DNA of 2,126 nt from Naegleria gruberi (taxonomy: Eukaryota), in assembly GCA_000004985.1 (NCBI GenBank), contig GG739288.1; one strand, 5' to 3'. The stretch's first letter is position 1; each line of letters opens with the position of its first letter. Under the pieces are notes generated by a model. The model searched no databases. It was not told the origin of the DNA and was given only the letters and a program-made list of their open reading frames with translations. Position numbers and translations under genes: made by a program. Below are positions 18 through 2,126 of the stretch, piece after piece.

Positions 18-938
18 TCAGTCAACTGGGTAAAACATCATTAAAGTCATGCTATCTGTAATTTCACAACTTTTAACAATCATCTGTTCCATTTTTTTCG
101 ATTTCAGCAGTTTTGAATCTTTAAACATGACACCTTCATCAACCACTAAAAAGTGTGATGCATCTTCCTCGTGTTTACATTCTTTAAAATTGCAAGTACC
201 CAATCCAAATTCTTCATCAAAGTAATGTGTAACAATCTTCTCAATTATCATTGGTGGAACACATTGACCCTCTTCTTCATCCAATGATTGTAAAATTGGG
301 TCATTTCTCTTGTATCTTCCCAGGGAATCATCTGGAGGCATTCTAAGCAAAGACTGTGAAATGTCTAAACAGTTATTAGGGTATATTACCCAAGTTACAT
401 CACTATCGTATTCAACTTCTTCCCAATCACTGTTTTTCCAGTATCTAATGTCATCTCTTTTACGAATTGAAGTTTTCAACCAAATCAAATCACTTTCTCC
501 AATAAAATGCTCACGATTTGTCAAGTTGAGCAGTTGAGTGTGACCTCTGTTGTTCATCACCAAGTATTGGGGTGTGAAATTTTGTGGAATTGGTTCTCTC
601 ATGTCAGCGTGAAATTCAAAGTGTGGACCAAGTGGCTTGCTACTCATTTGTTCTGAATCATTTTCTAGCAAAATCAAGGAAAATGGTTCGAAACTAATTG
701 GGCATGATAGGGTGTCACTCATACAATCCTCACAACAGTATGTGCTTGGGTCTAGTTCAGGAAACAATTCACAATAACAATGAATGCAAAAATATCTGTC
801 AACATGTTGATTTGATTGGATAAAGTAAACTTGTTCAAAGTGTGAGTTTTCTTTCAAGTTTCTTGTCGAGTTGTGTTTTGGCATTTTTTTTTCTTGTTGT
901 TTATTCGAATTGTTTAGTTGGCACTCGAATTTATTCAT
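18..938 (-). CDS. Hypothetical Cys-rich protein of 306 aa, family not recognised; stop TGA at 18-20
   Basis: This is an uninterrupted 930-nt ORF in AT-rich DNA, where stops are otherwise frequent. The ORF track's start at 945-947 is a TTG. The first ATG is at 936-938, in an A-rich context (ggaaaaaATGa, A at -3). The protein begins MNKFECQLNN... It contains the Cys cluster FCIHCYCELFPELDPSTYCCEDC and the motifs HVD and PHFEFHAD. No canonical splice donor interrupts the frame. Confidence 0.6.
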   Translation of the reverse strand: MNKFECQLNNSNKQQEKKMPKHNSTRNLKENSHFEQVYFIQSNQHVDRYFCIHCYCELFPELDPSTYCCEDCMSDTLSCPISFEPFSLILLENDSEQMSSKPLGPHFEFHADMREPIPQNFTPQYLVMNNRGHTQLLNLTNREHFIGESDLIWLKTSIRKRDDIRYWKNSDWEEVEYDSDVTWVIYPNNCLDISQSLLRMPPDDSLGRYKRNDPILQSLDEEEGQCVPPMIIEKIVTHYFDEEFGLGTCNFKECKHEEDASHFLVVDEGVMFKDSKLLKSKKMEQMIVKSCEITDSMTLMMFYPVD

Positions 939-1088
939 TTTTTCCAATAGATAAAAATAGTTTTTGGGATGAAAAACAAACTTTCATGTTTTAGAGCCAT
1001 CAATGATCCAATTTTGGATAATATCAAATCCAATATTTACATTTTCAATTCTTAATTAACCAAAAAAAACAACTTTTAGTAAAATTAC

Positions 1089-1094
1089 TTTATT
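1089..1094 (-). terminator. AATAAA polyadenylation-signal-like hexamer directly after the Rab-like stop (TAA TGA ATAAAG)
   Basis: Seen on the minus strand 3 nt after the stop. It is followed by a T-rich stretch (minus strand GTTTTTTTTGG, 1059..1069). Confidence 0.35.
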
Positions 1095-1096
1095 CA

Positions 1097-1495
1097 TTAA
1101 CAAATGATACATTTCTTCTCATTACCTTCCTTCTTTGCCTTCTTATCTGACAATTTTGTTGTGCTTGTTACTGTTGCTGCTTTAGGTTTATTATCCAAAT
1201 TCTTCTTAATTTCCAAAACCATTCTTATGAAAGCTTCCTCAACATTGGCCGAAGATTTTGCACTCGTCTCAATGAATGGCATATCATACCGGTTTGCTAA
1301 TTGTTCACCCTCTGAACGTTCAATTACTCTCTCAGCGGTTAGATCTGATTTACAACCAACCAAAAATTTTGTAATATCTACAGGAGCTGCCTTGTCAACT
1401 TCATTAATCCATTGACTGACATTATCGAAGGAGGATTGGTCAGTGATTGAGTAGGCGATAAATACACCGTGTGCATCTTTGAAATAACCTGGATG
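1097..1495 (-). CDS. Rab-like gene last exon (HPGYFKDAHGVFIAYSITDQSSF...LVGCKSDL...FIETSAKSSANVEEAF...KKCIIC), stop TAA 1097-1099 followed in frame by TGA
   Basis: Continuous frame covering Rab beta4-alpha5. The G5 motif ETSAK is conserved. The ORF track starts at an internal TTG (1361-1363), but the frame is open back to the acceptor at 1495. Confidence 0.85.
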   Translation of the reverse strand, partial: HPGYFKDAHGVFIAYSITDQSSFDNVSQWINEVDKAAPVDITKFLVGCKSDLTAERVIERSEGEQLANRYDMPFIETSAKSSANVEEAFIRMVLEIKKNLDNKPKAATVTSTTKLSDKKAKKEGNEKKCIIC

Positions 1496-1526
1496 CTGTT
1501 CGATAATTAGGTAAATAAACTTATAA

Positions 1527-1542
1527 GGTGGTTGGTTGGTTG
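1527..1542. repeat. Tetranucleotide repeat GGTG(GTTG)3; on the minus strand (CAAC)3CACC within intron 5
   Basis: Direct reading. Confidence 0.85.
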
Positions 1543-1549
1543 ACTTACA

Positions 1550-1577
1550 CTATTTCACAATTGTGAGCTATTTCACA
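1550..1577. repeat. Tandem ~18-bp duplication: CTATTTCACA at 1550-1559 and again at 1568-1577, enclosing the 10-bp perfect palindrome CACAATTGTG (1556-1565)
   Basis: Direct reading. It lies inside putative intron 5 of the minus-strand gene. Confidence 0.8.
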
Positions 1578-1599
1578 CCAAGAGTTGTAAAACACTTAC

Positions 1600-1609
1600 A
1601 TTTTCAATG
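1600..1609 (-). CDS. Possible 10-nt micro-exon CATTGAAAAT (A|IEN); the only frame-consistent canonical model
   Basis: Exon 4 leaves phase 2. Every candidate exon 6 acceptor (TAAG|TTT, ACAG|CAT, CCAG|GT) needs phase 0 or phase 1. The only GT donor in between is AAAAT|GTAAGT at 1599/1600. Only the 10-nt exon starting after tcAAG satisfies the frame. The 21-nt alternative (1600..1620, NAPSQALK, which aligns with Rab DTAGQERF) is off by one nucleotide. Confidence 0.2.
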
Positions 1610-1665
1610 CTTGACTAGGACTAATATCAAATATTAAGTAAATCATATGATAATGTCTTACTTAC
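1610..1665 (-). other. Intron 4 (45 nt if the acceptor is GATATTAG at 1621, 56 nt if the acceptor is TCAAG at 1610)
   Basis: The donor GTAAGTAAGAC is unambiguous. The acceptor choice is uncertain; see findings. Confidence 0.5.
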
Positions 1666-1769
1666 GCATTCCATATTTGTAATTTCAATGTTTTTCCATC
1701 CATTTCAATGGTACGAATTTTAAAGTCAACTCCGAGAGCGGAGTAATAAGTATCTGAGAAGGTATTGTC
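1666..1769 (-). CDS. Rab-like gene exon 4, switch I / beta2-beta3 ([34 protein letters not shown] + GC, phase 2 out)
   Basis: Strong match to Rab [24 protein letters not shown]. The exon ends at the perfect donor GC|GTAAGTAAG. Reading on in frame gives GCG TAA, a stop. Confidence 0.85.
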
Positions 1770-1812
1770 CTGAGAAAGGGGTAAGTTTGTGTGAAATATG
1801 TGGTTTACATAC
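1770..1812 (-). other. Intron 3 (43 nt), GTATGTAAACC...CTTTCTCAG
   Basis: GTATGT donor, pyrimidine tract, CAG acceptor. The ORF track reads through this intron. Confidence 0.8.
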
Positions 1813-1856
1813 AGAATAACGAAGGAGAAGTGATTTTGTTCCAACTTTACGATCAC
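1813..1856 (-). CDS. Rab-like gene exon 3, P-loop region ([15 protein letters not shown])
   Basis: GT GAT CGT AAA GTT GGA ACA AAA TCA CTT CTC CTT CGT TAT TCT. It aligns residue for residue with Rab GDSGVGKSCLLLRF. The ORF-track 'M' at 1854-1856 is a GTG. Confidence 0.8.
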
Positions 1857-1895
1857 CTAATATCATGTTTAGTTTAGTTTAGTTTCCCTACTTAC
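1857..1895 (-). other. Intron 2 (39 nt), GTAAGTAGGG...GATATTAG; contains (TAAAC)n
   Basis: Canonical GTAAGT donor and TAG acceptor. The intron interior is a pentanucleotide microsatellite. Confidence 0.7.
1867..1886. repeat. Pentanucleotide microsatellite (GTTTA)3GTTTC; on the minus strand (TAAAC)n inside intron 2
   Basis: Direct reading of plus 1867-1886. Confidence 0.9.
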
Positions 1896-1924
1896 CAAGG
1901 AAGAGTATTTTTACAAAATAATCA
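1896..1924 (-). CDS. Rab-like gene exon 2 (phase 2 in, phase 1 out)
   Basis: T GAT TAT TTT GTA AAA ATA CTC TTC CTT G encodes (Y)DYFVKILFL(G). This matches the Rab N-terminal beta-strand YDYLFKLLLIG. Confidence 0.7.
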
Positions 1925-1967
1925 CTACAAAGTTCAAATTACTACATGTCTGCAACAAATAACTTAC
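1925..1967 (-). other. Intron 1 (43 nt), GTAAGT...TTGTAG
   Basis: Canonical donor and acceptor. Splicing removes an in-frame TAA and joins MDPSY|DYFVKILFLG. Confidence 0.6.
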
Positions 1968-1981
1968 TATGATGGATCCAT
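1968..1981 (-). CDS. Rab-like gene exon 1 (ATG GAT CCA TCA TA, phase 2 out)
   Basis: ATG at 1979-1981 follows an A8 leader (aaaaaaaaATGG). Upstream, the reading frame of exon 2 hits an in-frame TAA, so an intron is required there. The donor GTAAGT follows immediately, on the minus strand at 1962-1967. TA|T completes Tyr of the conserved YDY. Confidence 0.6.
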
Positions 1982-2001
1982 TTTTTTTAAATTTGTGAAA
2001 A

Positions 2002-2051
2002 ATGAAACCTTTCAATAAAGGATTTATTCAAAAAGAGCGACCTCACTACTT
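2002..2051 (+). CDS. Possible first exon of a divergently oriented gene (MKPFNKGFIQKERPHY + TT, phase 2) running off the window
   Basis: ATG at 2002-2004 with an A-rich leader. The open frame abuts the GTAAGT donor. After the putative intron the frame continues TT|C TTC TAT TAT TGT. The coding region is very short, so support is weak. Confidence 0.2.
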
Positions 2052-2111
2052 GTAAGTACGAGAACATGATCTACTTCCAAACGAACTTTGACTAACTATG
2101 TTTCTACTTTA
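2052..2111 (+). other. Putative plus-strand intron (60 nt): GTAAGT donor, ACTAAC branch site at 2091-2096, pyrimidine tract, TAG acceptor at 2109-2111
   Basis: All three consensus spliceosomal intron elements are present with appropriate spacing. The branch A lies ~15 nt before the AG. Confidence 0.35.
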
Positions 2112-2126
2112 GCTTCTATTATTGTT

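Follow-up and report, generated by a model that had tools for sequence, protein, structure and literature searches.

Single-nucleotide exons and the Naegleria locus

Exons of one nucleotide (nt) have been experimentally established in Arabidopsis APC11 (PMC4674806) and in Fusarium CYP621A, where they were confirmed with reads from the Sequence Read Archive (SRA) (PMC12940212). In Fusarium, the clues were exon phases that do not fit together, an intron whose length exceeds twice the median, and an AG-N-GT that is conserved; the authors proposed that a cryptic AG-N-GT rescues the loss of one base and gives rise to the 1-nt exon (PMC12940212). Here, we describe a similar configuration in a Rab-like gene of Naegleria gruberi NEG-M, located on the minus strand of a complete scaffold of 2126 bp (contig GG739288.1), which we analyzed in full and refer to as the window; coordinates are window positions, and the features of the gene are read on the minus strand. 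GenBank carries it as a 'rab family small GTPase' of 199 residues (P0121, EFC35390.1/XP_002668134.1).

The Naegleria locus shares four features with APC11 and CYP621A: a phase mismatch between exons, an apparent intron of about twice the usual length, a mid-intron AG-N-GT that restores the reading frame, and an automated annotation that would be wrong. APC11 and CYP621A are backed by cDNA or SRA reads and by a strictly conserved motif that fixes the length of the protein, whereas the Naegleria case is known from genomic sequence alone. It also differs in having a competing path through a 10-nt exon, in falling within a degenerate region, in the identity of the middle base (T, not G or A), and in belonging to a heterolobosean protist. 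Our preferred explanation, which we hold tentatively, is that a 21-nt exon (TCCTAGTCAAGCATTGAAAAT, 1600-1620) and a 1-nt exon (T1549) are spliced in succession in a functional, catalytically dead Rab-like gene.

Splice paths that close the reading frame

The preliminary description of this DNA had placed the end of exon 4 in phase 2 at GC|GTAAGT and allowed entry into the Rab frame of the last exon in phase 0 (ACAG|CAT) or phase 1; both statements hold when checked on the minus strand. Exon 4 (1666-1769, 104 nt) ends ...TGG AAT GC|GTAAGT, and the last exon (1097-1495) can be entered in phase 0 at aacag|CAT (1495) or in phase 1 at catccag|GT (start 1488). Between them lies the 21-nt exon, framed by attag| and |gtaagt. 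Read on from exon 4 as (GC)T CCT AGT CAA GCA TTG AAA AT, it codes for (N)APSQALK, as had been noted, and leaves phase 2, one nucleotide out of frame; joined directly to the last exon, it brings a stop after 109 residues. The 3' part of this exon, a 10-nt exon (CATTGAAAAT, 1600-1609, tcaag|...|gtaagt), closes the frame behind an AAG acceptor. Exons 1-4, positions 1609-1600, and the last exon make a coding sequence of 600 nt, and its translation equals P0121 exactly. The GenBank models of P0121 and of a near-identical second copy in NEG-M (P0001, EFC45478.1, 188 residues, 'ras family small GTPase', on a 467-kb scaffold) both use this 10-nt exon; the protein reads ...LQIWNAIENHPGYF..., with the join WNAIENHPGYF. 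The 10-nt solution is already known, as an automated gene model.

Contrary to what had been claimed, however, the 10-nt exon is not the only frame-consistent solution. It is unique only under the implicit restriction to two introns, the two obvious GTAAGT donors, and the CAG acceptor. A third perfect GTAAGT had been overlooked at 1548-1543, inside the annotated 104-nt intron (1496-1599), with TAG-T directly before it. If any GT or GC donor and any AG acceptor are admitted, one or two introns suffice to close the frame in 72 ways, mostly through poor sites. We also searched strong sites only (donors GTA[AT]GT, acceptors YAG, introns of at least 30 nt, any number of introns). All stop-free, in-frame paths then use T1549, both in the window and in L001, a second version of the locus described below. 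The open paths are 21 + 1 nt (WNAPSQALKIHPGYF; introns of 45, 50, and 53 nt), 15 + 1 nt, and 0 + 1 nt; the 15-nt variant (1600-1614) starts at 1614, behind a second in-frame TAG acceptor. The 21 + 1-nt path gives an open frame of 203 residues. Two further kinds of solution were rejected. An extended last exon (acceptors 1550 or 1544, reading CKSTNQPPYKFIYLIIEQ...) would lose its frame through a 1-nt deletion at 1539 in L001, and the GC donors AAT|GCGTAA and CAA|GCATTG are weak sites, each overlapping or lying ahead of a perfect GTAAGT donor.

The anatomy of the locus is that of a 1-nt exon: an AG-N-GT within an over-long intron, exon phases incompatible without the N, consensus splice sites, and resulting introns of 50 and 53 nt. 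These two lengths compare favorably with the 56 and 104 nt of the annotated model, which ends the former intron at an AAG acceptor; the uncontested introns of the gene, 43, 39, 43, and 45 nt long, start with GTAAGT or GTATGT and end in TAG or CAG. On shuffling the intron interior, GTAAGT arose in 2.2% of trials (p = 0.022) and YAG-N-GTAAGT in 0.06% (p = 0.0006), the latter value being optimistic as the TAG-T-GTAAGT pattern was defined after the sequence had been seen.

The acceptors of intron 4 differ in their context. The sole TTAAT branch-like motif lies 13 nt upstream of the TAG at 1623-1621, with no other AG in between. The annotated AAG acceptor (1612-1610) is the third AG downstream of the motif, and its use passes over two TAGs (1623-1621 and 1617-1615); the 10-nt exon has AG and GT flanks and keeps the frame but lacks the expected proximal strong YAG acceptor. 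The Rab gene of Acrasis kona, a heterolobosean like Naegleria, has introns of 42, 47, and 38 nt, in a species whose introns are reported as 9-95 bp (PMC11589745). Its one AAG acceptor, in intron 1, is reached from a gttaac branch-like motif without an intervening AG, in contrast to the AAG of the annotated Naegleria model, the third AG after its motif.

In the proposed arrangement, three short introns of the form GTAAGT...YAG would lie between exon 4 and the last exon: intron 4 (1665-1621, 45 nt, GTAAGT...attag), intron 5a (1599-1550, 50 nt, GTAAGT...gtgaaatag), and intron 5b (1548-1496, 53 nt, GTAAGT...cgaacag). The candidate exon T1549 (aaatag|T|gtaagt) would complete AT|T (Ile) and bring the phase back to 0, and the mRNA would read ...LQIWNAPSQALK-I-HPGYFKDAHG..., for a protein of 203 residues. 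Introns 5a and 5b would probably be removed sequentially, since within the U1 footprint the 5' splice site of the second intron overlaps the 3' AG of the first; under intron definition, with introns of ~50 nt, the order would be free. After removal of 5b, the 3' site would be aaatag|TCATCC, and after removal of 5a, the donor would be AATT|GTAAGT, the signals of the other intron staying intact in each case. The annotated 10-nt exon would be a frame-forcing artefact of gene-prediction software unable to place a 1-nt exon. That the spliceosome uses these sites, that it removes the introns one after the other, and that the gene is expressed and functional are predictions from the DNA.

Two repeats lie in this region. 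The 10-mer TGTGAAATAG is present twice in intron 5a, 18 nt apart (1577-1568 and 1559-1550), and thus supplies the same acceptor context in two places; a small duplication may have stretched the intron from 32 to 50 nt. Use of the duplicate acceptor at 1568 gives a 32-nt intron and a 19-nt exon (1567-1549), and this 21 + 19-nt path is in frame but holds a TGA. Directly 3' of the third GTAAGT, a (CAAC)3-like microsatellite occupies 1527-1542, with a variable patch at 1542-1531.

The candidate paths predict distinguishable mRNAs. Downstream of the exon-4 sequence AAATATGGAATGC, the annotated model predicts CATTGAAAATCATCCAGG (GGAATGC|CATTGAAAAT|CATCCAGG), the 21 + 1-nt model TCCTAGTCAAGCATTGAAAATTCATCCAGG (TTGAAAAT-T-CATCCAGG, with the diagnostic AAAAT-T-CATCC), and the 21-nt exon alone TCCTAGTCAAGCATTGAAAATCATCCAGG (TTGAAAAT|CATCCAGG, frameshifted). 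The 21 + 19-nt path would read ...GAAAATCTCACAATTGTGAAATAGTCATCCAGG, including the TGA, and skipping would join exon 4 directly to CATCCAGG. The predicted junction peptide is NAPSQALKIHPGYFK in the 21 + 1-nt model versus NAIENHPGYFK in the annotated model. RNA-seq data exist for N. gruberi (ENA PRJEB23822; PMC6142364).

The 21-nt exon as a probable remnant of the G3 segment

NAPSQALK had been interpreted as a degenerate remnant of DTAGQERF. In the DNA, the first 13 nt of the exon support that reading; at the level of protein profiles, the support is weak (p = 0.075). With the register set by the Trp codon, AAT GCT CCT AGT CAA GCA aligns with the canonical GAT ACT GCT GGT CAA GAA, one base per codon being different. 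Compared with the canonical xGCxGGxCAxGAA, the first 13 nt match Acrasis at 7 of 13 positions (P = 0.013), Anaeramoeba at 10 of 13 (P < 0.002), and Batrachochytrium at 7 of 13 (P = 0.010), the null being all 21-mers of the window's own non-coding DNA in a fixed register. In the annotated model, 11 of these 13 nucleotides are intron. On the strength of this match, the TAG acceptor at 1621 is very likely the ancestral exon boundary and probably the current one too, and the 21-nt exon (1620-1600) would be a degenerate descendant of the DTAGQE-coding segment.

The protein-level comparison is less decisive. Scored against a Rab1/8 profile, the 21 + 1-nt model reaches 230.9 bits, the annotated model 222.7, and the product without the insert 218; since 7.5% of random 21-mers reach the score of the 21 + 1-nt model, homology at this level is not significant. 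The residues AIEN, specified by the 10-nt exon, score below the mean of random 10-mers against a Rab profile. The canonical Rabs in the alignment are all longer in switch II, by two residues relative to the 21 + 1-nt model and by six relative to the annotated one; as no ortholog is close, the length at the junction is not set by homology.

To compare gene structures, the exact exon chains of two canonical Rabs, Anaeramoeba Rab1 and the Acrasis kona Rab, were rebuilt. In Anaeramoeba flamelloides Rab1, WDTAGQ is encoded by its own 18-nt exon (TGGGACACTGCTGGTCAA, L003 2133-2150), flanked by GT-AG introns of 124 and 142 nt; a micro-exon over G3 thus has precedent in the Rab family. The boundaries are not identical, as the phases are 0/0 in Anaeramoeba, where the exon is in frame alone, versus 2/2 in Naegleria. 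The Anaeramoeba introns at LLLI^GDSG (phase 1) and LLRFA|DDTY (phase 0) match Naegleria introns 2 and 3 in position and phase, which suggests that these are old intron positions in Rab1-type genes.

A degenerate Rab protein

The assignment to a degenerate Rab gene is sound: the product matches Pfam Ras (PF00071) with E = 3.6e-44 over residues 10-168 and scores 218-231 bits against the Rab1/8 profile across the splice models. Its resemblance to Rab1/Ypt1 and Rab8/Sec4 extends over the full-length Ras/Rab fold, including the core strands, ETSAK, the helix NVEEAF, and a lysine-rich tail with a cysteine box. The best Rab1/Rab8 hits share 44-51% identity, for example, the Anaeramoeba RabD2a-like protein (P0002) and the Acrasis kona Rab (P0070). 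What sets the Naegleria protein apart is the replacement of residues that are invariant in all 22 canonical Rab1/8 proteins of the alignment. In G1, the P-loop GDSGVGKS is replaced, gap-free, by GDRKVGTK, with Lys changed to Thr and Ser to Lys; the sequence no longer fits GxxxxGK[ST]. In G2, STIG of switch I has become SALG, with loss of the Thr. The G3 motif WDTAGQ reads WNAPSQ with the 21-nt exon or WNAIEN in the annotated model; neither conforms to DxxGQ, and the Gln is kept only in the 21-nt exon model. In G4, GNKxD (GNK[SC]D) is replaced by GCKSD, in which the Asn is lost and Lys and Asp are kept. The G5 motif ETSAK is fully retained.

The C-terminus, ...EKKCIIC, differs from the CC or CXC typical of Rabs and is CAAX-like, as are Rab8-type tails (CSLI and CTLL in P0054 and P0095). 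The tail KLSDKKAKK…KKCIIC (1100-1165) also resembles the fish Rab8B-like tail KLSDKKSKKIK…CSLI, whereas the core is more Rab1-like (YFKDAHG, LGVDF). This resemblance suggests a prenylation signal of the CAAX type rather than the CC type.

An exhaustive HMMER search of ~15 billion proteins for an intact ortholog found no protein more than ~51% identical outside the gene's own cluster, and no ortholog outside N. gruberi-like genomes. Five open exons and intact splice sites despite at most 51% identity point to coding evolution for most of the gene's history. The product is probably a GTPase-dead Rab-like protein, possibly prenylated, and specific to N. gruberi-like amoebae. Pseudo-GTPases, the catalytically dead members of the Ras superfamily, offer a functional analogy only: they have lost nucleotide-binding and hydrolysis motifs, kept the core of the fold, and maintained their reading frames over long periods. 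The locus as a whole is best explained as a real, intron-rich, lineage-specific Rab1/8-like gene of N. gruberi.

Gene structure and the two annotated copies

The 5' part of the gene is common to the 21 + 1-nt and annotated models. Exon 1 (ATGGATCCATCATA, 1968-1981) begins with the ATG at 1981-1979 and ends in phase 2 at |GTAAGT, where intron 1 (1925-1967, 43 nt, GTAAGT..TAG) starts. Exon 2 (1896-1924, 29 nt) codes for ..YDYFVKILFLG and ends in phase 1; it is followed by intron 2 (1857-1895, 39 nt), by exon 3 (1813-1856, 44 nt), which codes for the degenerate P-loop, and by intron 3 (1770-1812, 43 nt, GTATGT..CAG). Downstream of exon 4, the annotated model places intron 4 at 1610-1665 (56 nt, ...tcaag) and a single intron at 1496-1599, which spans 5a, T1549, and 5b. 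The last exon runs from HPGYFKDAHG to ...KKCIIC, with the stop TAA at 1099-1097.

In a protein search, P0001 was the sole close match to the conceptual translation of the Rab-like gene. Its model starts MILGDRK at an ATG inside intron 2 of P0121 (aaacATGATATTAG|GTGAT; 1857-1870) and leaves out exons 1-2. The automated models of two near-identical loci are inconsistent at the 5' end and, being automated and discordant, are not independent evidence of transcription. A literature search for the gene accessions returned no paper.

A second haplotype and tests for selection

The protein P0123, found through the neighboring protein, sits on a 3675-bp metagenome contig in ENA (ERZ929261, locus L001). 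Its DNA is 97.8% identical to window 1024-2126. Within the interval of interest, L001 is identical over 1665-1543, which comprises intron 4, the 21-nt exon (100% identical), intron 5a, T1549, and the third GTAAGT, and again over 1530-1496; exon 4 is identical as well. The only differences in the interval are four substitutions and a 1-nt deletion, all at 1542-1531 in the (CAAC)3 patch, and they exclude models in which the patch is coding. A 1-nt sequencing error, one of the options raised for the phase mismatch, is excluded by the identity of this independent contig.

Across the gene, each of the five indel events that separate L001 from the window lies in an intron or a flank (p = 0.02 under random placement). 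The exon differences are three synonymous and two non-synonymous (pN/pS = 0.18, one-sided p = 0.065), and the last exon has that same count and no indel. P0001 carries the two replacements of L001 plus two more. Neutral evolution of a pseudogene predicts pN/pS of ~1 and indels spread alike; the data depart from this expectation, but the rejection is weak and the numbers are small. The signal consists of five substitutions and five indels and is gone if clustered changes are merged (p = 0.19), and indels favor low-complexity non-coding DNA anyway. We regard these data as weak evidence of constraint on the Rab-like gene between haplotypes.

Opposite the last exon, a 103-residue antisense 'shadow' open reading frame (ORF) spans window 1104-1415 on the plus strand and 762-1073 in L001. 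Gene calling on the metagenome contig took it for a gene, and it stands in the protein database as P0271, almost certainly a spurious protein. Used as a query for further contigs, it found only L001, and a scan of JGI metagenome contigs with the last-exon protein gave 387 pattern hits, none of them a relative.

Alternative explanations

Besides the caveats already attached to the shuffling, profile, and constraint statistics, several points weigh against the 21 + 1-nt reading. Exons of a single nucleotide are extremely rare and have a low prior. No transcript-derived sequence turned up in any collection queried, and the protein collection holds none of ten isoform products, each looked up as an exact match in the version of either haplotype. 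Unlike in the Fusarium case, switch II is too degenerate for any conserved motif to demand a particular length. The branch-point argument is weak, as introns 1 and 2 have no YTNAY motif, and the duplicate acceptor at 1568 could give the 19-nt exon with its TGA instead. In another reading, rather doubtful in our judgment, the locus is unproductive or a young pseudogene. The 21-nt exon would be joined directly to the last exon or skipped, or the 19-nt exon would be included. A frameshift would impose a stop after 109 codons (102 if the exon is skipped), and the annotated micro-exon would be an ORF-forcing artefact. A GTPase-dead Rab-like gene, functional for a long time, would have been disabled recently, for example because an A dropped out of the run in ..TTGAAAAT or a nonsense mutation arose. 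The out-of-frame direct join and the TGA of the 21 + 19-nt path fit this reading, as do the degeneration of G1 through G4, the orphan status of a gene with no ortholog above 51% identity, the inconsistent automated models of the two NEG-M copies, the missing transcript-derived protein in the collection, and selection tests that are individually weak. Whether the frame is disrupted depends, however, on the path, since the direct 21-nt join is frameshifted and the 21 + 1-nt and 10-nt paths are open. The defect would also have to be common to two, probably three, haplotypes ~2% apart that show no exonic indel among five and two non-synonymous changes in ~600 exon nucleotides, in a gene whose five exons are still open at ~50% divergence from any Rab. 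The pseudogene reading can explain TAG-T-GTAAGT (p = 0.0006 to 0.02) only as a relic of a lost exon.

The annotated model, in which intron 4 ends at AAG (1610), the 10-nt exon follows, and one 104-nt intron leads to a protein of 199 residues, is unlikely. GT-AG introns with two perfect GTAAGT donors restore the frame, GenBank uses this model for both copies, heteroloboseans do use AAG acceptors (Acrasis Rab intron 1), and 10-nt exons are far commoner than 1-nt exons. Against these points stand its passing over of two TAGs for a third AG, where Acrasis uses the first; the discarding of the 11 nt with the clearest homology to the ancestral G3 coding sequence; the poor profile score of AIEN; and a switch II deletion of six residues versus two. 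Its 104-nt intron, more than twice as long as the others, would have within it a perfect donor that directly follows a TAG and goes unused, and its standing as an automated call whose copies differ at the 5' end deprives it of value as evidence of transcription. Recoding, either a programmed -1 frameshift on an mRNA with the 21-nt exon or selenocysteine insertion or read-through at the TGA of the 21 + 19-nt path, is very improbable. That path is in frame apart from the TGA, and N. gruberi has selenocysteine machinery. Yet ..TTG AAA ATC ATC.. offers no X XXY YYZ slippery heptamer, selenocysteine insertion sequence (SECIS) elements and other Rfam families were not found in the window at E<=1, and there is no rationale for selenocysteine in a degenerate switch II. 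Scarcely credible is a sequencing or assembly error by which a base would be missing from the 21-nt exon. The scaffold is just 2126 bp long and unplaced, the exon ends in an A-run, and in the neighboring gene, 20 nt from the end of the scaffold, L001 does differ by 1 nt. The independently sequenced and assembled ERZ929261 contig is nonetheless identical over 1665-1543, including the 21-nt exon, and the model of P0001 has the AIEN join too, implying that the phase problem is present there as well.

The neighboring gene

The other annotated gene on the scaffold encodes P0122 (EFC35389.1, NAEGRDRAFT_76955, 288 residues, 18-884, minus strand). It belongs to no Pfam family and has a single relative among 5.8 billion proteins, and is hence an orphan. 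Its ORF stops at 20-18, 20 nt from the scaffold end. L001 (1660-2208) has one extra T there, and the ORF of P0123 runs ~180 codons further (…MFYPVDLKSDTIQYFF…). P0122 is probably a C-terminally truncated model that results from the 1-nt difference or from a low-quality scaffold end. Window 528-1023 (496 bp) is missing from L001, with the junction GGATTTGA|AACTTGACAAATCG and no clear microhomology. The segment holds the N-terminal ~120 codons of the neighbor, including the Cys-rich CIHCYC…CCEDC, plus 5' flank; its absence reflects either a deletion haplotype or a metagenome mis-assembly. Where the neighbor differs from L001, the changes are mostly non-synonymous and concentrated at window 126-189 (NFKECKHEEDASHFLVVDEGVMF vs KYKECKHEEDTFHFIVVDEGIKF).

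Implications for splicing in Naegleria

The wider proposition, that N. gruberi constitutively splices the 1-nt exon T1549 between two introns of ~50 nt, is possible but should be held with caution. Should the exon prove not to be real, the locus would still be a useful annotation warning: the 10-nt exon in EFC35390.1 and EFC45478.1 lacks support, the two records disagree at the 5' end, and the gene may be a GTPase-dead Rab paralog that was disabled recently. If the exon is real, T1549 would be the third known nuclear 1-nt exon, with no earlier case outside plants and fungi. Its probable origin would be a cryptic TAG-N-GTAAGT, or the last base of a collapsed exon, that rescued a one-base defect in the frame. 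Such exons would be systematically hidden in protist annotations behind forced micro-exons or pseudogene calls, and phase-mismatched exon pairs around AG-N-GT could be searched for more cases. The intron-defined spliceosomes of short-intron protists would be able to handle 1-nt exons, which would extend this extreme of spliceosome function to a deep-branching protist lineage.

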